A stretch of 64,000 nt of DNA, taken from contig JAZRXL010000040.1 in NCBI GenBank assembly GCA_045600225.1, positions 2,733 to 66,732 of the forward strand, read 5' to 3'. Position numbers and translations under genes: made by a program. Positions 1-19,236 of this stretch are shown piece by piece. Below the pieces are notes generated by a model. The model searched no databases. It was given only the letters and a program-made list of their open reading frames with translations, and was not told where the DNA came from. Position 1 is the stretch's first letter. Every line of letters begins with the position of its first letter. Origin of the DNA: Paludibacteraceae bacterium (GTDB lineage: Bacteria > Bacteroidota > Bacteroidia > Bacteroidales > Paludibacteraceae).

Positions 1-3000
1 GTACACTCCTGGATCTACTATAACGCCATTCTTAGTTCCATCCCAACCGTCATTTCCTTCAAACACCTTCATTCCATAACGATCGAATATAACCACATAG
101 AATCCCTTCATAAACACATCGTTCATTCCATCTTGGATATGAGGAGTAATCGCAGTAGGGATAAGTACACCTATTTCGAGAGAAGAACTAGTTGACGGAC
201 AAACGCCATCCGAAGCAAATACCTTGTATTCTGCAGACGACTGAGGAAGATAACCAAGCAATTGGTTATAATCCGTAATTGCAAGAGAATTACCATTGAT
301 TGTCCATTCGAATGAGATTGGCTCTCCTTGAACAATTTCTGCCAAGAAATCAACTGTAGAACCGATTGTCACCTCTGGTTTAGATGCAATCAAGTTTATT
401 ACTGGCTGCTCATACACCTTAACTGGTCCTAACACGAAAGGAACATCAGGACAAACTCCATCAGATGCGATAACCGTATAAGAATATTCTCCAGGCAAAG
501 CAGGAACATCTACCTTTGTCCATGGTTGATTAAACGGAATCTTATAATCTATAGATAAACCATACCAATCAAATGATGTAGGAGCACCTTGGTATACATT
601 CTTCACAAAATGTACGGAATCACCCAAACATATGTTATACTCATTTGTTGGAATTGCAATGTCAAAGAGAATAGGCTGATGAATATCGATCACAATTCCA
701 CCATTAGCATCAAATGCGCCAGGACATACACCATCATATACAACAGCAACAAATCTCTTCATGTTGCTATTAGGTAAAACTTGCCAAGAGTACGACATAT
801 CCGAACTTTGAACACTACTCATAAGAATAGGATTTTCCGTAGTCCAATCATACAAGTCATATTGCAAAGGTTCTCCAGAATATGCGGTAGCAGTAATCGT
901 TATTGGCAAACTCTCAGCTTGCTCACAGAACACATTCGTAGAAGAAGCCAAAGAAACAGTAACAGGTTCGTTAACCTTAACTGTTACAGTATCGGATTGT
1001 AACGGAGGGAATTTTTCTGTGCCGTAACAGATTCCATCCGATATGTTTGCAAAATAAGAATCATATCCTCTATAGGCTTCCGACCAGATTAAGGACTCAT
1101 TAAGATTTCCTACAGAACCTGCTCCAACCTTTTGCCATGAGAACATCTTCAAAAAGTTCAATGCCTCTGCTGGCTCAACCGAAACAAAATCAACTCTAAA
1201 GATTTCGTTTGCACAAACATTAGAGTTCGAAACCTCAACATGAGCCTTAAATGGAGTCTGAATTACAACAGGGACAACATTAGACATTACTGGTCCACAA
1301 ATATTTCCATCGTTTATTGTAACTGAATAGTACAATACAGATCCAGGAACAAATCCTTGATAATTATTCATGGTGTCAACCAACATCATTGGGTTTGGTT
1401 GATACAAATTCTTTACATTATACAAAGAATCATTCAATGCAGAATGGAACTCATAGGTATAATGAACGAACGAGTCTAACGCCTGCGTATTTGTAGAAAC
1501 CAATGTTATCAAATCATTCTTAGAACATGCAAACGACTTATCCGTTACCAATGAGACTTCGTATGGAGTATTGATGCTCACATAATCAACAGCTGTCTCA
1601 GGAGATGCAGAGGAAACACAAATTCCATCAAAAGCAAACACCTCAAATTTCACTTGGTCGGCTGGTCTCATCCATCCTTCCAATGAAGTCACATCCAAGG
1701 TTGTCGACTCAGAAATATATTCCATTTCCTTGTCATTTGCAGTTCTTCTATAAATGAATCCAGGAATATGATTTATGGCATTTGCCGGATCAACAGAAAC
1801 ATTCAACTCCAACTTATCCCCTGGCTGGTAACAAACCGAATTAGAAGATGCAGAAAGGGACAAGCGGAATGGCTCATTCACATCAAAATGTAATGTGTCA
1901 TTTGACATGGCTGAAGAACAAATGCTATCATCTGCCACAACAAATATCTTAAACGAATTTCCTGGAACAAATAGTTCAGGATGTTCTTGTTTAGACAATG
2001 TCAACTGAGATTCTGTTGCCTTACCAGCCAACAACAATCGAGTATTATTCAATGTGTCAATTGCATACCAACTATAACTCTTAATGTAAGCACGAGAAGA
2101 TTCAGGAGTCACTACTGTCGAGATAACAGCGCTCTCTGTAGAACAAATCTTCTTAACAGGACATGTAATAGACAATGTGTAATTAATTGCAATATTAGAT
2201 GTAAACTCATGTTCAACATCCGGACAAATACCATCCGAAGTTACTAATTTGAATGTACCCGTCATGCTTTGCTCTACTGGATAAGCATACGACAAACCAG
2301 TACCAATCAAAGGGGTTCCATTCAAAGACCAAGAGTAAGAGGCAATATGATTCACAGCATTTGCAGAATCAATTGTTGCCATAATATTGAAGTTATTTGA
2401 CTCTGCAGTCAAACATGAATCTGGCTCATTGAATTTCCAATCATAAGCATTGTATTTTACAGAGATCTCGTTTGACTCATTCTCACTCTTACAAGTCATA
2501 TCATAAACAGAGACCTTGTAGACTGCAGTATTTCCTGATTTGAAAATAGAAGGATAAGTTGCATCATCAAGAACAACCTTAAATGTCTCGTTCAACTCCG
2601 TCAACTCCTTTAATTTATTTCCATTCATATACAAATCAACCTTTTCTATATTCAGCAACGCTGTTGCTGGAGATATCGTGATTTGCAATTCTTGAGATCT
2701 TTGATTCAACAAACATACAGCATTGCTTGCATCCATAAACATAGAGAATCCACCTTCACGGATTTCTATACTTATCTCTGACGGAGCAGCATCATGCTCT
2801 ATTGTCGCACAGACATCTGTTGTTGTTGCAGAGATATAAGCCATCAACTGATTAGCTTTAATTTGAGTCTTTTCCCCGTTCAACAAATCCAAATTAGTGA
2901 ATGTCAACTCTTTTGTTGTAGTTACGGTATCCACAGAAGAACCATCAGAGAACTCAACATGCCACTTATACGATGTAATCTTCTGATCAATCTTTGCTGC

Positions 3001-6000
3001 CTCTTCTGCGCTTATCACGTCAGTCTTTACCTTAGCAGTCAAAACCAAAACCTCCGTGTCATAACTCCTCTCGTTGGTAGATACACAAACAGGATCCTTA
3101 CTTGAAGTAATAGACATTGTGTAATGCCCATTGTGGATTGAATAAGGAACCTCTATTTGGTCTTGTAAGAAGCAATATTTATCATCTACATTTACCGGAG
3201 TAATCTTAACACTACCCTCAATCACAGAATATGCATTTAGATTGTCAGGCACAAAAGTTTGAGTAGTATCATCCACAACTTTCACTGTTCCCGGCACCGA
3301 AGACCAATCAAACACCAATGTTGGTTCAGTATAGTTTCTTACCACCTTCACTGTTGCAGAGTTGCAATCAACAATACTTGATGCTTCTGGAGCAATATTC
3401 AAATTCATCTTTGCATGAGTAACCACATTCTGATAGAATGAGCAACCTCCTTCATCGTTTCCTCTGAAGATCAAAGAATCCATCTTAGCAAATGGGAAGG
3501 TTCCCAAATCTGTTCCATCAGATGCCTTTACTGAAAATTCATTTCCTTCTAAAACTGTCAAGGTTAGAGTATCCTTAGATACACCTTTAACATCCTTAGT
3601 ATATATCACAGTACTATCAGAAGCCAACCAAGACATTGTCCACTCATGGTCTGCAACAGTTAAAATTCTTTCGCCAGGAATTTGAACAACAGTTCCAGGA
3701 ATATTACAAAATGCAACAGAATCTCTTGGAGCCATCTCTCCTCCGTAAGTATTTCGAATCGTGATATTCGTAGTCGCTTGGTGGAATGTAAACTCACATT
3801 CTGTCAATTCAGAAATCATTCCATCTGCCACTTTACGGATAACATCCTTATCATCGGAAACGATAACACGATACGAAACCTCTCCCCAGAAATTAGAATC
3901 TTTTGTCGACACAGAGGCTGAGTCTATACTCATCATTTCAGGATGACTTGAATAGTCAATCAAATCAACCCACTTTTTCTCAGTTCCAACCGTCTTCTCA
4001 TATTGGAATATATAAAGAGGATTCTCCAAGTATGTACTGGTTTGGAATGCATGTAAAACGACCTCGTCGCCAGAGCAAGAAACAGCCTCGCTCTTCAAAG
4101 TGTCTCCGTGCATTGTTGCCAACAAACCTGCCTTAGGAATACATACAGAGAAGGTGATATCATCCAACAACATATCGTTTCCATCACCCGATTTACCATC
4201 ATTATAAATAACCACCCACACATAAGGTGTTTTGTCTGCCAACTGAATGAACTCATCAATACGGGTCCAATCTTTTCCTGCAACAACATCTCCTGTTGTA
4301 ACGCGACCCAACACATTAGGATCACCAGCATTTGGCAATGTTTTTGCATCATCATTGAACTCTTTCAACAAACAAATAGTTAAGTTCACAGGATTCTTAG
4401 ACTCTGTAGAATCAACATTAGTTGCGTTTCGCACGCTCATACCGAAGTTGAATCGGTCTGCAGGACACGACAAAGAAGCTTTTTGTGCATAAATAGCTGC
4501 TTTAGAAACATCTGTTTGTCCAGCGTTCACAAACAACATTGCTCCATTTTTGTTTCCTGTATAATCCGAACATGCAATAAAATCTTTATGATTCTTGTTA
4601 TGGTCACAGCTATCTGGAGAACTCACAATTGCATAGTAACCATCTTGCAAACGCAAAGATCCATCAGTACACCAAGTATCTTGCATATATTGGCTCAACA
4701 TTGGATTCTCTGTCAAATACAAGTGTCCGTTAGTTCCCACAAACTGGTTGGCTCCATTTCCGTCTGGATTAATAAAGTTAGTTGCCGTAACCACACATCC
4801 ATTAGGATCAGGAGCGACAAAGTGACGAATTGACATTGTATTCGGAGCAGACATATCTACCGACATCTTATCCCCTGCACTTGCACGAGCCGAATAGTAA
4901 TCTCCCTTGTAAACGAAATCACCAGAAGTGAACTTGTCACCACTTGCATTCATCGTTACAGAAGTTGTATGATCAACATCAATCTTAGATTGATAAATCG
5001 CTTCATCTCTAACATAAACATTCTCAGCCATGAAGAATCCGAATGTTTCGTAGAACAAAGTCTTCATCTCCAATCCATCACAATATTGTTGGCTTGAACA
5101 ATCTGGTTTTGGATAGAATAGGCCTTCCGACAAACCATTGTACTCAACCTTGTAGTAATAGTCGTTTTCTGCCCACACAGGAAGTTGATAAGTACTTTGG
5201 TCGTCTATATATACCCATGAAATAGAGTCCTTTGAATAGTACCATTTAAAAACAGGCTTCTCAATATCCTCTAACATCGCAGTTCCCACCGCCATCAATA
5301 TGTTTGTATCTTGCAAACAAGAACTAATTGGAAATTTAGATGCGATAAAGAAAGAGCACTCCCTTGACTCCACGTCAACGCTTCCAACATAAAGCTCATC
5401 TGCATACAAGGAGTATGTAGTAGACTCTGTCGGCGAAACAGCGATGTAAGGTACATTTGTTATACCCACCACTTGATTATCAGCATCTCTCCACACATAG
5501 GAAGAGGCTCCTGTAAAGTTAGTATATAACGAATCGGAACCACCAAGACATGCATATCCACGCTTAGCAGACACAGTGAATCCACAATCCGACATAGGGG
5601 TCACCTCAACTTTTGCTGAAGCAACTTTCAATCCATCCGCGAAAACAGAAAAATTATAGATTCCTGATTTTTTCGGGGTTACAGATATTGAACTGGTTGT
5701 AGTTGATCCGTAATCATTCCCTAAATCATCCTTCCAAGAATAGGAAGTGCCACTAGTATAAGTCGTAGCCAAGTTAATTGCTTTACTCAAGCACACTTTT
5801 GTACCAGAGGTTGTCATAAAGAAACCGCAGTCCTCCAATGACGGACTAACTTCAATAGAACTAACAACAGTCTCACCTCCCGATTTTGCGACCACTTTCG
5901 AAATGAAAGTAACAGGTTTCAATGTTTCCATTGTATAGGAAATGCTTGTCTTATCAGCATATTGGGTCAACCAAGTAGTATCGGAAGCTGATTTCAAAAC

Positions 6001-6474
6001 GCCCCAAGAGACATTATAAGAAGACAAATCCACATCAACAACGTATAGATTCGCATCAGCACCCAAACAAACACTCTCCTCATCAACAGTAATAGCACCC
6101 AAAGCGCCACCATCAATCACATAAACAGTCTGATTGGAAGGATCATACCTCATTGCTATCTTGCCATTCGCCTCGCCAGAAGTTTGGATCTTCATCTTGG
6201 TAGGATCAGAAGCATACACATAATTCTTAGAGAACATACTACTTTGAGAGTAGTCAACATTAAGAATTGTAACATCTCCGAACATCACTGTTCCATTAAA
6301 CCCATTTGCATCGATTGTCACATAACGACCTGACACTTCAAGTGTAGCTGAACCATTCCATCTATCACCCACCTCACAAGTCATAGAAGAAACAGCACAA
6401 ACATTAAAAACAAAAGAAACAACAGCTAAAAAGGTTCCTTTTATCCAATTATTTTTCACTAAAGTGTCTTTCAT
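1..6474 (-). CDS. Giant secreted cell-surface protein, 3'-truncated by the window edge (at least 2158 aa), with a T9SS type B C-terminal sorting domain
   Basis: Absent from the ORF track because no stop lies inside the window. ATG at 6474..6472, and 6474 = 3 x 2158. A full manual translation met no stop, and explicit triplet checks of eleven 60-nt lines found no in-frame tta/cta/tca. The N-terminus MKDTLVKNNWIKGTFLAVVSFVFNVCAVSS is signal-like. The last residues IPTAITPHIQDGMNDVFMKGFYVVIFDRYGMKVFEGNDGWDGTKNGVIVDPGVY fit the gliding-motility/T9SS type B CTD pattern. Many Ig-like modules end in SDG(I/V)C-type motifs. Confidence 0.85.
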   Translation of the reverse strand, partial: MKDTLVKNNWIKGTFLAVVSFVFNVCAVSSMTCEVGDRWNGSATLEVSGRYVTIDANGFNGTVMFGDVTILNVDYSQSSMFSKNYVYASDPTKMKIQTSGEANGKIAMRYDPSNQTVYVIDGGALGAITVDEESVCLGADANLYVVDVDLSSYNVSWGVLKSASDTTWLTQYADKTSISYTMETLKPVTFISKVVAKSGGETVVSSIEVSPSLEDCGFFMTTSGTKVCLSKAINLATTYTSGTSYSWKDDLGNDYGSTTTSSISVTPKKSGIYNFSVFADGLKVASAKVEVTPMSDCGFTVSAKRGYACLGGSDSLYTNFTGASSYVWRDADNQVVGITNVPYIAVSPTESTTYSLYADELYVGSVDVESRECSFFIASKFPISSCLQDTNILMAVGTAMLEDIEKPVFKWYYSKDSISWVYIDDQSTYQLPVWAENDYYYKVEYNGLSEGLFYPKPDCSSQQYCDGLEMKTLFYETFGFFMAENVYVRDEAIYQSKIDVDHTTSVTMNASGDKFTSGDFVYKGDYYSARASAGDKMSVDMSAPNTMSIRHFVAPDPNGCVVTATNFINPDGNGANQFVGTNGHLYLTENPMLSQYMQDTWCTDGSLRLQDGYYAIVSSPDSCDHNKNHKDFIACSDYTGNKNGAMLFVNAGQTDVSKAAIYAQKASLSCPADRFNFGMSVRNATNVDSTESKNPVNLTICLLKEFNDDAKTLPNAGDPNVLGRVTTGDVVAGKDWTRIDEFIQLADKTPYVWVVIYNDGKSGDGNDMLLDDITFSVCIPKAGLLATMHGDTLKSEAVSCSGDEVVLHAFQTSTYLENPLYIFQYEKTVGTEKKWVDLIDYSSHPEMMSIDSASVSTKDSNFWGEVSYRVIVSDDKDVIRKVADGMISELTECEFTFHQATTNITIRNTYGGEMAPRDSVAFCNIPGTVVQIPGERILTVADHEWTMSWLASDSTVIYTKDVKGVSKDTLTLTVLEGNEFSVKASDGTDLGTFPFAKMDSLIFRGNDEGGCSFYQNVVTHAKMNLNIAPEASSIVDCNSATVKVVRNYTEPTLVFDWSSVPGTVKVVDDTTQTFVPDNLNAYSVIEGSVKITPVNVDDKYCFLQDQIEVPYSIHNGHYTMSITSSKDPVCVSTNERSYDTEVLVLTAKVKTDVISAEEAAKIDQKITSYKWHVEFSDGSSVDTVTTTKELTFTNLDLLNGEKTQIKANQLMAYISATTTDVCATIEHDAAPSEISIEIREGGFSMFMDASNAVCLLNQRSQELQITISPATALLNIEKVDLYMNGNKLKELTELNETFKVVLDDATYPSIFKSGNTAVYKVSVYDMTCKSENESNEISVKYNAYDWKFNEPDSCLTAESNNFNIMATIDSANAVNHIASYSWSLNGTPLIGTGLSYAYPVEQSMTGTFKLVTSDGICPDVEHEFTSNIAINYTLSITCPVKKICSTESAVISTVVTPESSRAYIKSYSWYAIDTLNNTRLLLAGKATESQLTLSKQEHPELFVPGNSFKIFVVADDSICSSAMSNDTLHFDVNEPFRLSLSASSNSVCYQPGDKLELNVSVDPANAINHIPGFIYRRTANDKEMEYISESTTLDVTSLEGWMRPADQVKFEVFAFDGICVSSASPETAVDYVSINTPYEVSLVTDKSFACSKNDLITLVSTNTQALDSFVHYTYEFHSALNDSLYNVKNLYQPNPMMLVDTMNNYQGFVPGSVLYYSVTINDGNICGPVMSNVVPVVIQTPFKAHVEVSNSNVCANEIFRVDFVSVEPAEALNFLKMFSWQKVGAGSVGNLNESLIWSEAYRGYDSYFANISDGICYGTEKFPPLQSDTVTVKVNEPVTVSLASSTNVFCEQAESLPITITATAYSGEPLQYDLYDWTTENPILMSSVQSSDMSYSWQVLPNSNMKRFVAVVYDGVCPGAFDANGGIVIDIHQPILFDIAIPTNEYNICLGDSVHFVKNVYQGAPTSFDWYGLSIDYKIPFNQPWTKVDVPALPGEYSYTVIASDGVCPDVPFVLGPVKVYEQPVINLIASKPEVTIGSTVDFLAEIVQGEPISFEWTINGNSLAITDYNQLLGYLPQSSAEYKVFASDGVCPSTSSSLEIGVLIPTAITPHIQDGMNDVFMKGFYVVIFDRYGMKVFEGNDGWDGTKNGVIVDPGVY

Positions 6475-6578
6475 AACGTCGTAACAACTTAACTCTTAAT
6501 ACTTAGTCTCAAATTATTATGTAATAAAAATGGTCGATGCCAACATTCTTTGTGAGCACACTACGCACAAAAAACGAG

Positions 6579-9991: not shown

Positions 9992-11710
9992 CTATTTGTC
10001 AAGAACAGCACGAATACTCAAGCCATAGTATCTCATATTGTGTACAATTTGAGCGTAATGACCTGCAGAACCTGGTTGCAACTTCATACTGCCTGCAACA
10101 ATGGTACTCTCTTCCGACATGTCATTGGCCCAATAATATCCATATACTCCTACATAGTTATTGGTCGAAGTAGTACCAGTCATAGATGAACCTGCAGGGA
10201 AATATAACTTATTTCCGTTAGGTCCTACTGCAATATAAAGGTGGTTTGTTTCATCTCTTTCCCAAGTACACTCTTTTATCAACTCTTCAAAGTCAGCAAT
10301 AGAAGGCATGTGCCACTGACCACCCATCTTTACTCGTGCCACATCATCCGTCAAAGACAAGGATGTTTTCTTGTCAGACGAATTATATTTGCTATATTCT
10401 CCCTTTGCTGAATCGTAAGAGTAAGCATAGTTTGATCGAGAGAAATCTGCATCTTTATCTTTTCCCGTATTGGTAGTTTCTCCCCATGAGAAATACTCTC
10501 CGTAGTCAGATGGCGAACTTGCACCTATATTCGCAGTTGCCCACTTCTTTCCACTTTTCAATCCTAGATCCACATACGCGTAACCATTGTAACGGCATGC
10601 GTTTGATGCATCGTCAATCTCTGCCTGAAGCCTTTCGTTCTCTGATTTCAACTTTGCATTTTCATCAGTCAAACTCTCGTTCTTTGTTTTTAGTTCCGAG
10701 CCCTCCGATTTCAACTGCTCATTTTCACTAGTCAAACTCTCATTCTTTGTTTTCAATTCTGAGTTCTCCGATTTCAACTTTGTATTTTCACTAGTCAGAC
10801 TCTCATTTTTTGTTTTTAGTTCCGAGTTCTCTGGCTTCAATTGGTCATTCTCTGCTGTCAACGTAGAAATTTGCTTCTCGTATTCTGATTTGATCTGCTC
10901 GACTTCAGCAGATGATGTGCAATCATCATTTCCATACAGATCTTTTTCTGAAAATACCGGACGAACCATCATACCTATGTATTCCCAACCTTTCGTATCG
11001 TCAACTCCAGAAAACAAGCCTTTTGTCGTATATGAGTACGCAATATTTAAAGCATAACATTGGGTTGATGTCCAGTACATTCCGCATGGGAATTCGTCAT
11101 AGTGTTTAATTTTAGGATTTTCTTCATCATCTTGTGGGGTATAAAAAGGGAAGAAGATAGAATTTCCGTTGATTTTAGATGTGTACAAGAATCCAGAAAC
11201 CGATGACCCGTTGTAATTTTCGATCCACTCTTCAACACAATTATACATCAACTCTTCAAACTCTTCCTTCGTAGGCATTCTCCATGGTTTATCCAACGCA
11301 CGTCTTGCATGATCACTCTTTCCTACCAATATTCCATTCTCAATATTAGGTTCGCCATGTGTTGAACAATAGTTAGCCTTATTGAACTTTCCTTCATGCG
11401 CCCAATTTTCTCCCCAAGCATACAATGTTCCTTTTTCGTAAGGACGAGAGGCCCACAGGTTACTAACTGCCCACTTCACACTTAATCCTAAATCCACATA
11501 CCCCCATTGATCCAAGACAAATCCATTAGAGTCTTTACGCGGAACAAATCCTGTATAACTTGAACCTTCTTCGTAGGTAACACGTTTTACATTTTCCACA
11601 GAGAAAGTGACCTTCGTATTGTCAGAATTCTCTACTACCATCTGCGTATTAGCGGCAAACGCATTTACCAATGCAAATATCGCCAACACCGACATCACAA
11701 TTTTTTTCAT
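9992..11710 (-). CDS. Secreted protein with two FISUMP/DUF1566-like lectin-type domains joined by a repetitive coiled coil
   Basis: Signal peptide MKKIVMSVLAIFALVNAFA. Two copies of the pattern (V/K)KWAxxN(L/I)...Y(A/F)(A/S)WGE...W(R/H)MP(T/S)xx(E/D)FEEL...YW. Central ENSELKTKNESLTSEN repeats. Confidence 0.65.
   Translation of the reverse strand: MKKIVMSVLAIFALVNAFAANTQMVVENSDNTKVTFSVENVKRVTYEEGSSYTGFVPRKDSNGFVLDQWGYVDLGLSVKWAVSNLWASRPYEKGTLYAWGENWAHEGKFNKANYCSTHGEPNIENGILVGKSDHARRALDKPWRMPTKEEFEELMYNCVEEWIENYNGSSVSGFLYTSKINGNSIFFPFYTPQDDEENPKIKHYDEFPCGMYWTSTQCYALNIAYSYTTKGLFSGVDDTKGWEYIGMMVRPVFSEKDLYGNDDCTSSAEVEQIKSEYEKQISTLTAENDQLKPENSELKTKNESLTSENTKLKSENSELKTKNESLTSENEQLKSEGSELKTKNESLTDENAKLKSENERLQAEIDDASNACRYNGYAYVDLGLKSGKKWATANIGASSPSDYGEYFSWGETTNTGKDKDADFSRSNYAYSYDSAKGEYSKYNSSDKKTSLSLTDDVARVKMGGQWHMPSIADFEELIKECTWERDETNHLYIAVGPNGNKLYFPAGSSMTGTTSTNNYVGVYGYYWANDMSEESTIVAGSMKLQPGSAGHYAQIVHNMRYYGLSIRAVLDK
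10643..10831 (-). repeat. 3 x 63-bp in-frame tandem repeat (21-aa ENSELKTKNESLTSENxxLKS units)
   Basis: Read directly: units at 10769..10831, 10706..10768 and 10643..10705, with degenerate partial units flanking them. Confidence 0.85.
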
Positions 11711-11730: not shown

Positions 11731-12204
11731 TTATTTACGAACGATTTTGAATGATAGAGTACCTATAGTCAAAACATAGACTCCCTTAGCCGATGGCAAT
11801 TGTAGTGTTGCTTCTCCTTCTGCGTTTGCCTCTACCAATGCCAACGTAATTCCATTCACACTGAACAATGCGATCTTCTCCGACGCTTTTACATTTTTTA
11901 TATTCACAATGTCTTCTTCCACATAAAACAAAACAGGGGCATCGCCAGAAACAATTTCCGACTTCACTGATCCTTGTGTTTCTTCTGTGAAACGATACTC
12001 CTTCACATCTGCAAAGGCATAAGATGTAGATGACTTCCCATTCACAACAAGTTGTGACTCATTGTAGGTAATCACAGGTTTTTCCGACAAGGCGAAATCA
12101 ATTGTCTTGCCAGACTTTAACTCAATCGTCATGTATGTTGTAGCCTGACTAGCCGACAAACATCCACCCAAAAGAGTTAAAGCTAATAAATGTTTGAAAT
12201 TCAT
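11731..12204 (-). CDS. Small secreted protein with a T9SS type A (Por) C-terminal sorting domain
   Basis: 157 aa. Signal MNFKHLLALTLLGGCLSASQA. C-terminus IALFSVNGITLALVEANAEGEATLQLPSAKGVYVLTIGTLSFKIVRK fits the Por secretion tail pattern. The stop lies 20 nt before the 572-aa gene's ATG, so the two look like one operon. Confidence 0.7.
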   Translation of the reverse strand: MNFKHLLALTLLGGCLSASQATTYMTIELKSGKTIDFALSEKPVITYNESQLVVNGKSSTSYAFADVKEYRFTEETQGSVKSEIVSGDAPVLFYVEEDIVNIKNVKASEKIALFSVNGITLALVEANAEGEATLQLPSAKGVYVLTIGTLSFKIVRK

Positions 12205-12342: not shown

Positions 12343-12425
12343 CCCGTGGGCGTTACCATGGGCGAATGCAATTCGGTCCAATTGTGTACATTGTTTGCCA
12401 CGGGCGAATGCAATTCACCCCTACC
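12343..12425 (-). repeat. Two degenerate copies of the 42-bp hairpin unit (GGGCGAATGCAATTC...)
   Basis: ccatgggcgaatgcaattcggtcc and gccacgggcgaatgcaattcacccctac. The TAG stop of the 1304-aa gene (12421..12423) lies in the CCCCTAC part of the unit. Confidence 0.8.
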
Positions 12426-15400
12426 TAATTAACGCAAAATGTCCCGTATATTCCCTATCGATTTCTCTCAATTGGATGACATACCAATAATCTGTACTTG
12501 GCATCGGATGTCCGTTATAGGTTCCGTCCCAACCGTCGAACTCGTTATCTATCTCTATCAATAGTTTTCCGAAACGGTCGTAGATACTGACGGTATAGTA
12601 GTTGTAATAGTCCAAATTCTCCACCTCCCATAGGTCATTGACTCCGTCTCCATCTGGAGTCATTATCTCTGCCGGAATAATCTGAACCGCCAAAGAGACC
12701 ACCGAGTCTGCCTGACAGCCCTTTGAATCCATCACCTTCACCAACATCGGCGCTGGAGAGAACTTGGTAGGATAGGTATTCTCCATCTGCCATGGTTCTG
12801 TTCTCCAGAAATATTGGTAACCTGGCGTTCCTCCACTCACCTCCATCGCCAACCATTGGAACGCATCCTCATAGTAGACCGTATCGATCCGAGGATTCTC
12901 CAACACGGCAACTTCCACCGTAAACGAATCTTCACACACCTCGTCTGTCACGTTCACCCTGTAGGTTATATCCGCCACGCCCGCCATGGACGGAGTACTC
13001 TCATTCGTTGAGCTTAGATATGCCGACGGTGTCCACGTATAGTGCAGATTCTCGCAACAGTTTGGCTTGAATCGATAGGTTTCTCCTTCGCATATCTCTA
13101 CCGACACCTGCTCTTCCAATCCAAACTTCGGACGGGTATCTATACGCAACATTCGGATCGTATCATCCTTCAACGTACTCTCGTCGGTATAGTAGCCGTC
13201 ACCAATGTAGCTTCCGCCTCGCCAATCTACATAATGGTCGGGACATGGATCCACAAACAACGTGTCGTAGGTAAAGACATGCAGACTCAAATGCAACAGA
13301 CTATCGCAACCATAGATGGTTTGCTTCAAAAGTTCGTGCGTATAGTCACCCACATCCTTGTGAGTCAGGTTGAAGCCATGACGGGTAAAGAGGTCATTCA
13401 CCTTGACCGTATCGATCAAATAAGTATCCTTGGTCTCATGGACCGTCAACTGCAACGTCACGATACTATCACAGCCATGGATCGTCTTCAACTCATCCAC
13501 ATACGTACCAGCCACCGTATATGGTTTGCCTCCAAAGATAAACTCTTCTCCGTCGCAGATTGTATCGTGTACAGTTACATGGAAGGTATCATGCACAGTC
13601 AAATACAACGTCACAATGCTATCACAACCATAAATGGTCTTTAGTTCGTCAACATAGCTACCTGCCTTCGTGTAAGGATTGCCTCCGAAGATATATTCAT
13701 CTCCGTTGCAGATAGTGTCATAAACAGATACATGGAAGGTATCGTTTACAGTCAAATGCAACGTCACAATGCTATCGCAACCATAAATGGTCTTTAGTTC
13801 GTCAACATAGCTACCTGCCTTCGTGTAAGGTTTGCCTCCGAAAATATATTCATCTCCATTACAGATTGTATCCTTTACCGTCACATGGAAGGTATCATGG
13901 ACTGTCAACTGCAACGTCACGATACTGTCGCAGCCGTGGATCGTTTTCAACTCATCTACATACGTACCTGCCACTGTATATGGCTTGCCTCCGAAGATAT
14001 ACTCGTCTCCATCACAGATTGTATCGAGTACGGTTATATGGAAGGTATCATGCACCGTCAAGTACAACGTCACGATACTGTCACAACCATGGATGGTCTT
14101 CAGTTCGTCCACATAGCTTCCTGCTACTGTGTATGGATTTCCTCCGAAGATATATTTCTCTCCGTTGCAGATGGTATCATAGACAGAGACGTGGAAAGTG
14201 TCGTGCACCGTCAAGTACAAGGTGACGATACTGTCGCAACCATAAATCGTTTTCAGTTCGTCAACATATTTGCCAGACGTCTTATAGGTCTTTCCACCAA
14301 AGATGTATCGCTCTCCGTTGCAGATCGTATCATAGACTGAGACGTGGAAGGTATCGTTCACCGTCAAATGTAACGTCACAATACTATCACAACCATAGAT
14401 GGTCTTCAGTTCATCTACATATTTGCCTGATGTCTTATAAGTTTTTCCACCAAAGATGTATCGCTCTCCATTGCAGATAGTGTCATAAACAGACACGTGG
14501 AACGTATCATGCACAGTCAAATACAACGTCACAATACTATCGCAACCATAAATGGTCTTTAGTTCGTCAACATAGCTACCTGCCTTTGTGTAAGGTTTGC
14601 CTCCGAAGATATATTCATCTCCGTTGCAAATAGTGTCATAAACAGACACATGGAAGGTATCGTTCACCGTCAAATGCAACGTCACAATACTATCGCAACC
14701 ATAAATGGTCTTCAATTCATCTACATATTTGCCCGACTTTTTATAAGTCTTTCCGCCAAAGATGTATTGTTCTCCATTGCAGATGGTGTCATAGACTGAG
14801 ACGTGGAAGGTGTCCAATACGACCAACTCCAAGGTGACGATACTATCTCGTCCTGTGACAGACTTCAACTCATCCACGTAGGTATCCGCTTCAGTCAATT
14901 TCTTTCCTCCAAACAGATACTCTTCTCCCCTACAGATGGAGTCTACGATGGTCGTATCCAGTGGACCCAAAACATTCAGCGTCAGGCGTACTAGACTATC
15001 GCAACCGGCAGCTGTCTTGAGCGACAACTCATGCACATCGCTCGTAGTCTGGGAAGGCAGGTTGAATCCATGCTTCTTGTAGGTCTCTCCCATGCCAACA
15101 GAATCCATGATACCGACTTGATAGGTGGTGTCGACAGTCAGTGCCAACACTGTGGTATGTTTGCATCCGTTGCTACCCGTTGTCTCCACGCTATAGTAGT
15201 TCAGTCCGCAAGAGAGTCCGGCAGGAAGATCGAAGCCATGGCGTCCATACTCCTCCGTCTGGCAGATACGATCGCGCACAGTATCGCGGGTAAGTGGTAG
15301 GACATTCAAGGCAAGTGTCACCGTACTGTCGCATCCGAAAGCTGTGTTCAGATAGGCAGTGTCTTTGTAGACTCCCGCCGCCGTTGCCTTGATGGCGAAG

Positions 15401-16335
15401 CCGTTTTTATTGTAGTATTCCCCTTGGCAGACCTTGTCGGTCAGATTCGTCTTCTTATTGGGCATCACCACCAGTTGGAGGGTTGTGGTGACATCACACT
15501 CACCATTCTCACCTTTCAGTGTCTTTTTGTAGGTTCCGCTCCTTGTCGCCGAGAAACCGAACTTCTCGTAGGTATATCCTTCACAGATGGTATCCTTGAT
15601 AACGGTTGGTGTGGAGGTATTGACAATGATGGTCTTCTCAGCCTTAGCCTGACAGCCATAGTTGTTGGTAGCAGTCACCTCGTAGGTAAAGGTTTTCTTT
15701 GCCTCCTCCACAATCACGCGGCTAGTAGCACCTGTGTTCCACTCATAGGAGATGGTCTCGTCGTACTCTGTATCATCAAAATCTTTTACCAAGAAGAATG
15801 AATTTTTCTCCCTTTGACTTACCGGCTCGAATATTTTCCAAGTTTGAGTATAGCACCAATTATAGCCACTCCCCGCCTCCGTACTCGTTTGAAAGTCATA
15901 ATGTCCGAAAAGGAAATCAGCACTACCTCCCAAATAACCACGGTTGGCCAGCAAATGAAATATTTGCCCAACGGAAGGAACATACCAACCATTCTTGAGT
16001 GATGAAAAATAGGGGTATGCATTTTCATCCCCAGCCTCACGTAATGTCATCGAATTACCATACCCATCAAGATCACCCATCGCTTCTTCTAACGTTTCAT
16101 AATCAGGTAAGGGGCTATTATTATTTTCCCTATTAGAGAAAGCCGCTTTCACAATAGGTTGCTGATCATTGAAGACCCATCCGCTATTGCCATCTTCACT
16201 AAGATAAAAAATAATACCAGATTCACCATTTTCAAAGAAATATCGCTCTCCTAAAAAATGTCTCGCATTCATAGAGGAACAAATGAACCATAAACTAATG
16301 ACAAGGGCAATATGCTTACAATATGATTTGCTCAT
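12421..16335 (-). CDS. Large repetitive surface protein with an N-terminal DUF1566-like domain, about 15 Cys-containing 51-aa modules and a T9SS type B C-terminal domain
   Basis: 1304 aa with a signal-like N-terminus. GIIFYLSEDGNSGW...NGWYVPSVGQIFHLLAN. Repeats DTxCxGxxYxFGGxxYxxxGxYVDELKTIxGCDSIVTLxLTV. C-terminus IPAEIMTPDGDGVNDLWEV...IYDRFGKLL...WDGTYNG...YWYVI is the type B CTD pattern. Confidence 0.85.
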   Translation of the reverse strand: MSKSYCKHIALVISLWFICSSMNARHFLGERYFFENGESGIIFYLSEDGNSGWVFNDQQPIVKAAFSNRENNNSPLPDYETLEEAMGDLDGYGNSMTLREAGDENAYPYFSSLKNGWYVPSVGQIFHLLANRGYLGGSADFLFGHYDFQTSTEAGSGYNWCYTQTWKIFEPVSQREKNSFFLVKDFDDTEYDETISYEWNTGATSRVIVEEAKKTFTYEVTATNNYGCQAKAEKTIIVNTSTPTVIKDTICEGYTYEKFGFSATRSGTYKKTLKGENGECDVTTTLQLVVMPNKKTNLTDKVCQGEYYNKNGFAIKATAAGVYKDTAYLNTAFGCDSTVTLALNVLPLTRDTVRDRICQTEEYGRHGFDLPAGLSCGLNYYSVETTGSNGCKHTTVLALTVDTTYQVGIMDSVGMGETYKKHGFNLPSQTTSDVHELSLKTAAGCDSLVRLTLNVLGPLDTTIVDSICRGEEYLFGGKKLTEADTYVDELKSVTGRDSIVTLELVVLDTFHVSVYDTICNGEQYIFGGKTYKKSGKYVDELKTIYGCDSIVTLHLTVNDTFHVSVYDTICNGDEYIFGGKPYTKAGSYVDELKTIYGCDSIVTLYLTVHDTFHVSVYDTICNGERYIFGGKTYKTSGKYVDELKTIYGCDSIVTLHLTVNDTFHVSVYDTICNGERYIFGGKTYKTSGKYVDELKTIYGCDSIVTLYLTVHDTFHVSVYDTICNGEKYIFGGNPYTVAGSYVDELKTIHGCDSIVTLYLTVHDTFHITVLDTICDGDEYIFGGKPYTVAGTYVDELKTIHGCDSIVTLQLTVHDTFHVTVKDTICNGDEYIFGGKPYTKAGSYVDELKTIYGCDSIVTLHLTVNDTFHVSVYDTICNGDEYIFGGNPYTKAGSYVDELKTIYGCDSIVTLYLTVHDTFHVTVHDTICDGEEFIFGGKPYTVAGTYVDELKTIHGCDSIVTLQLTVHETKDTYLIDTVKVNDLFTRHGFNLTHKDVGDYTHELLKQTIYGCDSLLHLSLHVFTYDTLFVDPCPDHYVDWRGGSYIGDGYYTDESTLKDDTIRMLRIDTRPKFGLEEQVSVEICEGETYRFKPNCCENLHYTWTPSAYLSSTNESTPSMAGVADITYRVNVTDEVCEDSFTVEVAVLENPRIDTVYYEDAFQWLAMEVSGGTPGYQYFWRTEPWQMENTYPTKFSPAPMLVKVMDSKGCQADSVVSLAVQIIPAEIMTPDGDGVNDLWEVENLDYYNYYTVSIYDRFGKLLIEIDNEFDGWDGTYNGHPMPSTDYWYVIQLREIDREYTGHFALIR
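13438..14814 (-). repeat. 9 x 153-bp near-identical in-frame tandem repeats
   Basis: 1377 bp = 9 x 153. Each unit encodes DTFH(V/I)(S/T)V.DTIC(N/D)G..(Y/F)IFGG..Y....G.YVDELKTI(Y/H)GCDSIVTL.LTV(N/H). Confidence 0.95.
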
Positions 16336-16338
16336 TTC

Positions 16339-18666
16339 TCAAAAATGTTTAAATTGACGAATGGTTAAAGGAACAGCATCCCCAAATAAAAAAGTATGGA
16401 AATTAGGAATATTTAGATAATGAAAATAAGAAGTATTTGGAGTAATGCTCGAGGCCATAAAATAGTTTTCCGAATCCACATACATTTCACCACCTATCAT
16501 AGATAATGATTGATTAATCTTAGATAAATTTGCCATAACCGAATACATTTCACCTACTGCTGGAACATACCAACCATTATCAAAATCAACATCTTCAAAT
16601 ATATGGTATTTCAGACTTTTATAATATATATTATTTTCAATAATCTCCTGTAAAGTTGAAGACATCTTCTCCCCATCATTAAACGCGTCATTAAATAACG
16701 GTGCCGTGACGAGACCACCATGTAGATAAGAAAAAACCCGTTCAATGTATGGATTTCCCATTCCAGGATAAACACTTTTTGTAAGATTTGTGATTGCTCC
16801 ATGTTCTCCCGTGTCATCCAAATAAACAACCACGCCTTCTGCAGTCTTGTTGCTTTTTGCAAATTCATCCGGATGGAGAATCGTTCCATCCGTACAATAA
16901 ATGTCTCCCACCTTTATTCTATCATCCTCCTTTTTCTCGTAATCCAAACCTCCCTTGGCTGTCAGTTTTATCTCCTTGCCTTCACAAAGAACAGAGTCGC
17001 CATCCAAGTCAATACGCACCTTCACCTCGGGTGCCACTACAAGACTCAACACCACCAAACTATCACAACCATAGACGGTCTGCAAGTTTTTATTTCGAAC
17101 GATTTTTCCCTCCTCGCTAAGCGTTCCCAAATTAAAACCATACTTCGAGTATTTTGTACCAATACAAACCGTATCGAAATAAACCTTTTTGTAATTCTCG
17201 TGTACATTTAACTTGACACTTTGCGTTTTGGAGTTACATCCATTACCCGCAGTCAACGAAATTGTTTTTGTACCACTATCCTCGAAATCGAGACTCAATG
17301 TAGGCGAATATGAAACATGTTCAACGCCACCTTCCTTCCACTTCCACTGATAAGTAGAAAGATCCTCACCACCCTTAGCAATGAACACAGCAGGCTCTCC
17401 TTCACAAACATTCAAAGGTCCCTCTATCGTAGGAAAAACGGGTAGTTGACTCACAGTCAGACGTAACGTATAATATTGAGGATAACTCTCTCTACATGTT
17501 GTACACGGCAACGTGTCATAATAAGTTCCGACTGCAGGTTTGATGTATCTAAAACCATACTCTTCAAAACTTTCGCCCTCACAAATACCTTTTGAAATTT
17601 GAATATACGGTTTTTTACTATCCAACTTAATTCGTATCTTCTTCCCCACCTTAAAGGCACAAGTGGCAGGGTCGTAATAATTCATGATTACCTCCCTAGC
17701 TGCATCCGTAGGCAAAACAATTCCATCCACTTCATAAGAATCACCTGTCGTCACTGTCACCTCGTAATCTTCTGCTTTGATATTAGAAAGGGAGGTTATC
17801 ACTCCAACCAGCACGAACTCAGAGCCAGTAGCAGAACGGACAATACACGAAACAGAACTGTTCGTGGTATTCTTTGGAACTGTAGTGCTACGCTCCGTGG
17901 AACCGTTGCTCCACTTGTAAGAAGCAAAACCTTCTGGAGCTGAGAATGTCACTTTATCACTCTGACACCTTTCCACATAGAGTGTTTTCTCTATGCATTC
18001 TGCCGTAAAATAGGCGTATGCGAAATGCTCAAAAGCACCACAGTCGTAGGTGGAAATGCGTATTTGGACTTCTTGCCCCACTTTGGAAGATAAATCCACT
18101 CCCATGCTCGACCAATCACACCAAATAATACTGCTTCCCAGCTTTCCCTTTTGAGCAGATGTGTGAAAACCAGCGGCATTGGCGCTGGCATAGACGTCGT
18201 AACTAGAATTGTCATTGATCAATCTGCCACTCACATCCAACACCTGAAGGTTGAAGCGTGGCTGTTCGTCCTTGGCGTGCCCTGGATTCTCCATCACCAC
18301 CGCATAGCGTAGCTTCAATATAGGATTATCGGCATTCACCCTGAAATGGTAGACCAACACGTCTGTCTCGGCCTCAGCCAAATCATTGCCCAAGCGAACC
18401 ACACTCGTAGTTCCCTCTGGAAGCAACTTCAACTTGTTGTCTGTATAGGGATCTGTTCCTTGCGTGGAGATAACCGTGTGGCGACCCTCCACGACTCCCT
18501 TATCCTGCATCGGTTCCCAAGTACGACCGGTATATGCCTCTACATACGAGGCGCCCAAATTGGTCAAATCAGGACAACCATTATAGACCGTATATCCACT
18601 GGCCGAAAAAATAGTCGATAGTAATACTAATAAAACGAAAAACGTCCTTCTAAAATATGAAACCAT
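16339..18666 (-). CDS. Secreted protein with an N-terminal beta-rich domain, Cys-repeat modules and a C-terminal DUF1566-like domain; no recognisable T9SS CTD
   Basis: 775 aa. Signal MVSYFRRTFFVLLVLLSTIFSASG. Modules ICEGESFEEYGF... and VCIGTKYSKYGF...YGCDSLVVLSLVV. C-terminus EGVVVYLDDTGEHG...NGWYVPAVGEMYSVMAN. The stop is 3 nt before the 1304-aa gene's ATG. Confidence 0.75.
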   Translation of the reverse strand: MVSYFRRTFFVLLVLLSTIFSASGYTVYNGCPDLTNLGASYVEAYTGRTWEPMQDKGVVEGRHTVISTQGTDPYTDNKLKLLPEGTTSVVRLGNDLAEAETDVLVYHFRVNADNPILKLRYAVVMENPGHAKDEQPRFNLQVLDVSGRLINDNSSYDVYASANAAGFHTSAQKGKLGSSIIWCDWSSMGVDLSSKVGQEVQIRISTYDCGAFEHFAYAYFTAECIEKTLYVERCQSDKVTFSAPEGFASYKWSNGSTERSTTVPKNTTNSSVSCIVRSATGSEFVLVGVITSLSNIKAEDYEVTVTTGDSYEVDGIVLPTDAAREVIMNYYDPATCAFKVGKKIRIKLDSKKPYIQISKGICEGESFEEYGFRYIKPAVGTYYDTLPCTTCRESYPQYYTLRLTVSQLPVFPTIEGPLNVCEGEPAVFIAKGGEDLSTYQWKWKEGGVEHVSYSPTLSLDFEDSGTKTISLTAGNGCNSKTQSVKLNVHENYKKVYFDTVCIGTKYSKYGFNLGTLSEEGKIVRNKNLQTVYGCDSLVVLSLVVAPEVKVRIDLDGDSVLCEGKEIKLTAKGGLDYEKKEDDRIKVGDIYCTDGTILHPDEFAKSNKTAEGVVVYLDDTGEHGAITNLTKSVYPGMGNPYIERVFSYLHGGLVTAPLFNDAFNDGEKMSSTLQEIIENNIYYKSLKYHIFEDVDFDNGWYVPAVGEMYSVMANLSKINQSLSMIGGEMYVDSENYFMASSITPNTSYFHYLNIPNFHTFLFGDAVPLTIRQFKHF

Positions 18667-18820: not shown

Positions 18821-19236
18821 ATGTGCATTGTTTACCATGGGCGAATGCAATTCACCCCTACTGTGCGCATTGTTCAACATGGGCGAATGCAATTCGCCTC
18901 TACTGTGCGCATTGTTCAACATGGGCGAATGCAATTCGCCCTGTGCGCATTGTTCAACATGGGCGAATGCAATTCGCCTCTACTGTGTGCATTGTTCAAC
19001 ATGGGCGAATGCAATTCGCCCCTACTGTGCGCATTGTTCAACATGGGCGAATGCAATTCGCCTCTACTGTGCGCATTGTTCAACATGGGCGAATGCAATT
19101 CGCCCCTACTGTGCGCATTGTTCAACATGGGCGAATGCAATTCGCCCCTACTGTGCGCATTGTTCAACATGGGCGAATGCAATTCGCCTCTACTGTGTGC
19201 ATTGTTCAACATGGGCGAATGCAATTCGCCCCTACT
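18821..19236 (-). repeat. Tandem array of 10 hairpin-bearing units (nine of 42 bp, one of 38 bp)
   Basis: Unit GTG(C/T)GCATTGTTCAACATGGGCGAATGCAATTCGCC(C/T)CTACT. Unit boundaries at 18821, 18863, 18905, 18943, 18985, 19027, 19069, 19111, 19153 and 19195. Each has an 8-bp stem GGGCGAAT/ATTCGCCC and a 3-nt loop. There are no variable spacers. Confidence 0.95.

Follow-up and report, generated by a model that had tools for sequence, protein, structure and literature searches.

An old, protein-constrained array of 51-residue repeat domains in a predicted type IX secreted surface protein of a Paludibacteraceae bacterium

We analysed a 64,000-nucleotide stretch of DNA from a Paludibacteraceae bacterium (GenBank assembly GCA_045600225.1, contig JAZRXL010000040.1, positions 2,733 to 66,732 of the forward strand; hereafter the window), in which a gene at 12421..16335 on the minus strand encodes a 1304-aa protein containing a tandem array of nine 153-bp repeats. 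We consider it likely that this is a real, in-frame array of old five-stranded beta-domains which forms the stalk of a type IX secretion system (T9SS) surface protein, is constrained at the protein level and evolves by birth and death. The array is real and safely assembled, yet it would be an old protein-constrained stalk and not a hot, homogenising repeat. As a class, a stalk array evolving slowly by birth and death is ordinary; modest novelty lies in the size of the domain family, in an invariant motif that resembles a sequon and in the cassette-like arrangement of the locus.

A preliminary description of this DNA had proposed nine 153-bp units at 13438..14814, and this count was correct. 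The array is exactly 1377 bp long, encodes aa 508-966 of the minus-strand open reading frame (ORF), on which all parts of this gene described below also lie, and is in frame, as its start at gene offset 1521, a multiple of 3, shows. Tandem Repeats Finder (TRF) detected a 153-bp period in 9.0 copies at 13432..14811, with 79% matches and no indels, and also called the same stretch as a 459-bp period in 3.0 copies. The units, here named W1 to W9, are of types D A D D x B (C/A hybrid) A B, and every variant that had been quoted for them was present: the ends HLTVN, YLTVH and QLTVH, KTYK(K/T)SGK versus KPYT(K/V)AG(S/T), and CNG versus CDG. A hidden Markov model (HMM) profile built from the nine core units identified 15 repeat domains in the protein. 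In addition to the core units, it detected five weaker, degenerate copies of ~51 aa at 14815..15606 (aa 244-506; 19.9-53.9 bits), which are 88-100% identical in nucleotide sequence to the related locus L001 introduced below, and a single one past the array at 13276..13434 (aa 968-1020; 27.3 bits), bearing out the six degenerate flanking copies proposed earlier. The boundaries of the 153-bp units coincide with the domain boundaries seen in the HMM and in an AlphaFold2 (AF2) model. In the ORF list the 1304-aa frame is the sole long ORF through the array region. Antisense ORFs of 119-200 aa on the plus strand within the array (13042..13644, 13866..14225 and 13885..14340) were rejected as genes; they arise because the repeat unit has no stop codons in those frames.

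The units had been called near-identical, a description that holds for the protein only. Pairwise amino acid identity among W1-W9 was 73-98% (mean 84%), with differences restricted to 16 of the 51 positions, while pairwise nucleotide identity was 67-96%. Variable sites were found at 12 first, 6 second and 47 third codon positions (of 51 each). By the Nei-Gojobori method (NG86), nonsynonymous divergence (dN) among units averaged ~0.09, and synonymous divergence (dS) was >1 or incalculable through saturation for most pairs, these estimates being noisy on units of 51 codons. Residues shared by two units used the same codon in 56% of cases overall, compared with 39-46% expected under full randomisation. 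Across unit pairs this fraction was 0.38-0.90 against 0.39-0.46 at random, and several pairs were at the random level of 0.38-0.45 (W3-W6, 0.38; W4-W7, 0.40; W4-W8, 0.44). A younger set of pairs consisted of W2-W8 (96% nucleotide identity, dS 0.17), W7-W8, W2-W7, W6-W9 and W1-W3. In the non-repeat flanks, compared with the orthologous locus of a relative, dN/dS values were 0.014/0.24 before the array and 0.093/1.04 after it, and the omega of the array units resembled that of these flanks. The units are most simply read as old duplicates, subject to the purifying selection that also acts on the remainder of the protein.

The sole close homologue among 5.8 billion proteins was P0002, a 1457-aa protein of the Paludibacteraceae metagenome-assembled genome (MAG) GCA_024401515.1, which is named merely "T9SS type B sorting domain-containing protein" and is longer than the window protein by 153 aa, or three units. 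P0002 is the orthologue, with the same domain order and the same two-gene module, consisting of the repeat gene and an upstream gene for a 775-aa protein. Nucleotide identity between the window and the DNA of this orthologous locus (L001, from a short-read MAG) was 95% in the 775-aa gene over 16799..18594, 94% and locally 96-100% in the pre-array part of the 1304-aa gene, and 81.5% in its post-array part (dS 1.04). The P0002 locus differs in having type C units, a head domain of ~35-50% identity encoded by unalignable DNA and other flanking genes on both sides of the module, and in lacking a 42-bp element present in the window. Among further searches for orthologues, a scan of genome contigs with the post-array region gave just one other locus (L002), at 33% identity, scans of metagenome contigs with the post-array and pre-array regions gave none, and a protein search with the C-terminal 287 aa had a best match of 44% identity.

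Twelve units make up the L001 array (D A B C A B C A B C A B), a count that is provisional because a 521-bp exact repeat cannot be counted by short reads. A neighbour-joining tree with bootstrap of 21 units (nine from the window, 12 from L001) grouped the units by type across both genomes and not by genome. The type A clade contained W2, W8, L2, L5, L8 and L11 (bootstrap 100%), type B contained W6, W9, L3, L6, L9 and L12 (97%), type C contained L4, L7 and L10 (100%) and type D contained W1, W3, W4 and L1 (97%). This grouping rules out array-wide concerted evolution or gene conversion since the genomes diverged, and the unit types, being common to both genomes, predate the split. The closest unit identities between the genomes were W1 with L1 (96%), W2 with L2 (97%), W8 with L2 (98%) and W9 with L3 (93%). 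W3-W5 had no close counterpart in L001, type C was absent from the window array, and L001 carried a recently amplified 459-bp A-B-C higher-order repeat with copies 97-100% identical. Both arrays have been remodelled since divergence. Unit order, and by this provisional count also copy number, therefore differ between the window and GCA_024401515.1. The earlier proposal that such arrays commonly change copy number, and with it adhesin length, was partly supported: nine versus 12 units and a different order are observed, in a comparison with one orthologue whose count of 12 is unsafe. The array in L001 (7468..8925) contained exact repeats 521, 248 and 230 bp in length, spaced 459 or 918 bp apart.

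In the mechanism that we favour, the protein would be exported by Sec, fold in the periplasm, pass through the type IX translocon and be retained at the cell surface. SprB and similar type B cargo are anchored at the surface via PorP/SprF-like proteins (PMC7463736), and anchoring here may likewise involve such a partner. The nine core domains of ~51 residues and the six diverged copies would form a 15-module stalk, placed between an N-terminal head and a C-terminal T9SS type B sorting domain, that projects the variable head away from the cell. Every module is under strong purifying selection, which would hold the nine core units at ~84% protein identity while synonymous sites randomise, and occasional unequal recombination would duplicate, delete or fuse units in frame, without continuous homogenisation. 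Such events could include the origin of the W2/W8 pair, the fusion that made the chimera W7 and the amplification of three units in the relative. We expect copy number to be fairly stable in this genome; the relative shows that rapid amplification is possible for the same gene.

The 51-aa unit had no real match in Pfam-A 2025 or NCBIfam 20.0 even at E<=10, whether three units or the whole repeat region were searched. The curated families covered included PKD, Big, SprB, Ig_7, the Listeria-Bacteroides repeat and others. Five other members of the family gave spurious matches only in the curated libraries, with no stretch that passed, and neither the protein nor the repeat profile (at E<=1) had a meaningful match among PDB sequences. 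Matches of the window protein to the NCBIfam "CCRG-2 RiPP" and to Pfam DUF3685/EAD6 were rejected as repeat-summed noise, since at most one short stretch passes alone. In a library of 1.84 billion proteins, the domain was carried at E<=1e-3 by 36,100 representative proteins, 12,485 of which reached E<=1e-30, with lengths of up to ~6,300 aa. This mini-domain family accordingly comprises at least 36,100 representative proteins, with up to ~100 or more copies per protein. Its members occur in Bacteroidota of gut, rumen, soil and sea, and most homologues end in a T9SS sorting domain of type A or B (PF13585 or PF18962). The modal spacing of 2,410 domain instances examined in 121 homologues was 51 aa. 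A curated model of the unit would annotate tens of thousands of giant proteins now recorded as "hypothetical" or "T9SS sorting domain-containing".

An AF2 model of W1-W3, built from a 49-sequence alignment of three-domain segments (pLDDT 92.8, pTM 0.63), predicted three successive modules of five strands each. The top Foldseek matches of this model in the PDB were cryo-EM fragments of GhpA, 9flp and 9flw (E 8.8e-6 and 3e-5), with probability 1.0, TM 0.38-0.42 and 13-17% identity; Rib domains gave weak matches only (E ~1e-2). GhpA is a heptameric "grappling hook" T9SS substrate of Aureispira, with a stem of Ig-like repeats that bear intramolecular disulfides and O-glycans. In each unit of the window protein there is one conserved pair of Cys residues, and the motif G-C-D-S-[I/T/V/L] is invariant; these features would allow both modifications. 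Family-wide, Cys was conserved at position 12 in 83% and at position 40 in 96%, and the two residues probably form an intradomain Cys12-Cys40 disulfide. A general O-glycosylation motif of Bacteroidota, (D)(S/T)(A/I/L/V/M/T), has been described (PMC8550257), and D41-S42-[I/T/V/L] fits this sequon in 89% of the 2,410 instances. The window protein contains 34 such sequons, with two in each core unit, whereas 6.5 would be expected. This suggests that O-glycosylation of the repeat domain is possible. However, position 42 is Ser in 93% and almost never Thr, and a structural role of the motif is equally possible for this reason. The overlap between the invariant motif and the sequon offers a testable idea on how surface fibres are built. 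The resemblance to GhpA is one of architecture, and homology is not demonstrated: the repeat profile found no sequence homology to it in the PDB at E<=1, the TM scores are low, GhpA repeats are ~70 aa rather than 51 aa, and GhpA has ~6000 aa compared with 1304 aa here.

Several results weigh against the favoured explanation. The comparison of arrays involves a single orthologue, whose count of 12 units is perhaps wrong because its MAG was assembled from short reads and contains a 521-bp exact repeat; the synonymous estimates carry the noise of short units; and the head domain could be assigned to no family, with no Pfam match at E<=0.1 and nothing in a word-index homologue search. No PorP/SprF-like gene was detected with Pfam and NCBIfam among the neighbours scanned (the 775-aa, 157-aa and 572-aa genes, adenylosuccinate lyase, an ABC transporter and a metallophosphatase), which weakens the case for surface retention over release. 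A PorP/SprF-like partner, often encoded next to the gene of its type B cargo (PMC7463736), is a usual companion rather than a strict requirement, and may be encoded elsewhere in the genome. T9SS core genes were likewise absent among the window genes scanned. Finally, a comparator array of the same family has only 64% amino acid identity between units, compared with 84% here, although both are synonymously saturated. A spacer role alone leaves 84% identity under synonymous saturation unexplained.

This strict conservation of the core units can be accounted for by a different role of the domain. It would then be a phylum-wide mini-domain serving as a disulfide-stapled, glycan-bearing T9SS rod module, whose conservation reflects lateral packing into GhpA-like oligomeric fibres, or binding of a periodic ligand, rather than a spacer function; the two-gene module, with its 42-bp element and swappable head cassette (see below), would be exchanged between genomes as a unit. 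We regard this as a tentative and rather unlikely alternative to an old stalk array under ordinary protein-level constraint.

The preliminary description had read the mosaic pattern of variants as a sign of ongoing intragenic recombination or gene conversion. In its strongest form, this makes the locus an actively recombining, contingency-type array in which ongoing gene conversion and unequal crossing-over often alter copy number and adhesin length, both within strains and between them. The mosaic pattern is non-random: in the pairwise homoplasy index (PHI) test with 55 informative sites, none of 2000 permutations gave a value as low as that observed (p<0.001), and compatible sites clustered along the unit. 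Recombination has therefore taken place between units in the past. The clearest chimera is W7, its 5' third being nearest to types C/B, its type A middle being identical to W8 over 51 nt and its 3' end being D-like and resembling W1. The recent pairs W2/W8, W7/W8 and W6/W9 are also consistent with active recombination, as are the 12 units and 97-100% identical 459-bp blocks of the relative, which indicate that this gene lineage can amplify quickly. However, synonymous sites are at or near saturation in most unit pairs, and the types are shared across genomes, with no homogenisation of the units within each, so that recombination does not appear to be ongoing. Identical tracts >30 bp are few in the window array (53, 50, 44, 36, 32 and 32 bp), and with none longer than 53 bp the array offers homologous recombination little to act on. 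The near-identity of units at the DNA level that provides a substrate for frequent recombination is lacking in the window and present in L001. The array also differs from a slipped-strand phase-variation (contingency) locus in that its units are diverged and 153 bp is 51 codons, so that gain or loss of whole units keeps the reading frame. Taken together, these results make an actively recombining array unlikely.

We also considered selection at the DNA level, in which synonymous differences between units would be favoured to suppress recombination and stabilise an optimal stalk length. Protein identity of 84%, far above the expectation from the DNA divergence, and the near absence of long identical tracts would both fit this scenario. 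However, codon identity between units was never clearly below random (0.38-0.90 versus 0.39-0.46), which gives no sign of selection for synonymous dissimilarity; saturation suffices, and the comparator array of the same family is equally saturated with lower protein identity. The hypothesis that synonymous sites are selected to differ was rejected on this basis, and DNA-level scrambling in general is very unlikely. An assembly artefact, in which the nine units are a collapsed, expanded or chimeric product of short reads, as the earlier concern about short-read collapse implied, is highly improbable even for an apparently metagenomic contig of 68.4 kb with a repeat array, a classic site of misassembly, and with unresolvable 521-bp repeats at 459-bp spacing in the relative, to which that concern does apply: all units in the window are distinct, even the closest pair reaching only 96% identity, exact repeats extend to 53 bp at most, less than typical reads and large assembler k-mers, which makes the count of nine assembly-safe, the frame is intact across 1304 aa, and W1, W2, W8 and W9 are matched at 93-98% in an independent assembly.

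Outside the repeats, the reading of the 1304-aa protein as a T9SS type B cargo or surface protein is based on its ORF and on C-terminal domain matches. Residues 1-24 (16264..16335; MSKSYCKHIALVISLWFICSSMNA) have a hydrophobic core followed by small residues and form a probable Sec signal peptide, as judged by eye alone. The N-terminal head domain (15766..16263; aa 25-190) is hypervariable between the two related genomes. Its AF2 model, from a 3-sequence alignment, was poor (pLDDT 34.5) and was excluded from use. Its GWY[VL]P..G motif may bear a likeness to DUF1566/Lcl_C. Between the repeats and the sorting domain lies a Cys-rich region (12670..13275; aa 1021-1222) of no named family, as Pfam detected CHU_C alone in aa 1021-1304. 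Homologues of this region were other "gliding motility-associated" proteins with a type B C-terminal domain, at no more than 44% identity. The T9SS type B C-terminal sorting domain itself (12424..12669; aa 1223-1304) matched TIGR04131 with 99.2 bits (cut-off 35; E 1.1e-28) and CHU_C, PF13585, with 55.4 bits (cut-off 27; E 6.6e-15). Pfam and NCBIfam recognised nothing else in the protein. The earlier designation of the protein as an adhesin is plausible.

This architecture resembles that of T9SS type B cargo of the SprB/GhpA type in its probable signal peptide, judged by inspection, in the C-terminal type B sorting domain and in a body of many tandem small beta-domains. It differs in that the window protein has no match to the SprB repeat (PF13573), and in that no PorP/PorE-like genes adjoin the 1304-aa gene among the neighbours scanned. 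The array is also comparable to the stalks of Gram-positive Rib/alpha C, SasG and Esp/Bap-type proteins, which likewise have in-frame, domain-sized repeats, core units more similar than the edge units, and copy-number differences between relatives (here nine versus a provisional 12). In contrast to the window array, the units of Gram-positive arrays typically have almost the same DNA sequence, and their number varies by RecA-type deletion or expansion. They also differ in fold family, in phylum and in secretion route, using sortase rather than the T9SS.

The gene for the 775-aa protein (16339..18666, minus strand) lies upstream of the 1304-aa gene, separated from its start by 3 nt, and the two are probably co-transcribed. 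A PKD-like domain and two copies of the 51-aa repeat are present in the 775-aa protein, whose C-terminal domain is a paralogue of the head in the 1304-aa protein (BLASTP, 27.6% identity over 123 aa, E 2e-7). This C-terminal domain and the N-terminal 185 aa of the 1304-aa protein are encoded by a hypervariable cassette of ~1 kb at 15783..16798 (minus strand), which had no nucleotide match to L001 by BLASTN, although its flanks are 94-95% identical, and whose domains are 35-50% identical in amino acid sequence to their L001 counterparts. Judged from these alignments, this looks like cassette replacement of a putative pair of binding domains.

The two-gene module is bracketed by copies of a 42-bp element, GCATTGTTCAACATGGGCGAATGCAATTCGCCCCTACTGTGC, which contains the hairpin GGGCGAAT-GCA-ATTCGCCC (fold z = -4.3). 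Upstream of the module there are 9.9 tandem copies at 18825..19236 (TRF score 733, 94% matches), and two further copies are at 12355..12420, directly after the stop codon of the 1304-aa gene. All copies are in the same orientation and the element occurs nowhere else in the 64 kb, with 0 occurrences expected by chance. It is absent from L001, and an Rfam search gave sub-threshold matches only.

Other features of the surrounding DNA were noted. An open frame of at least 2165 aa at 1..6495 (minus strand), which runs off the start of the window, lacks the 51-aa repeat and gave no match in Pfam at E<=1e-5, and its end reads like the start of a T9SS type B sorting domain (…PHIQDGMNDVF…DRYGMKVFEGNDGWDGTKNG…). 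A small 157-aa protein with a signal peptide, encoded at 11731..12204 (minus strand) immediately downstream of the 1304-aa gene, has a weak match to a T9SS type A sorting domain, at 20.9 bits (cut-off 23). The 572-aa gene at 9992..11710 (minus strand) encodes two paralogous domains, one of them with a sub-threshold match to Lcl_C/DUF1566. Between these domains, a 63-bp tandem repeat in 3.1 copies at 10637..10888, for which a 126-bp period was also called, specifies a coiled-coil repeat of 21 aa (…SELKTKNESLTSEN…).

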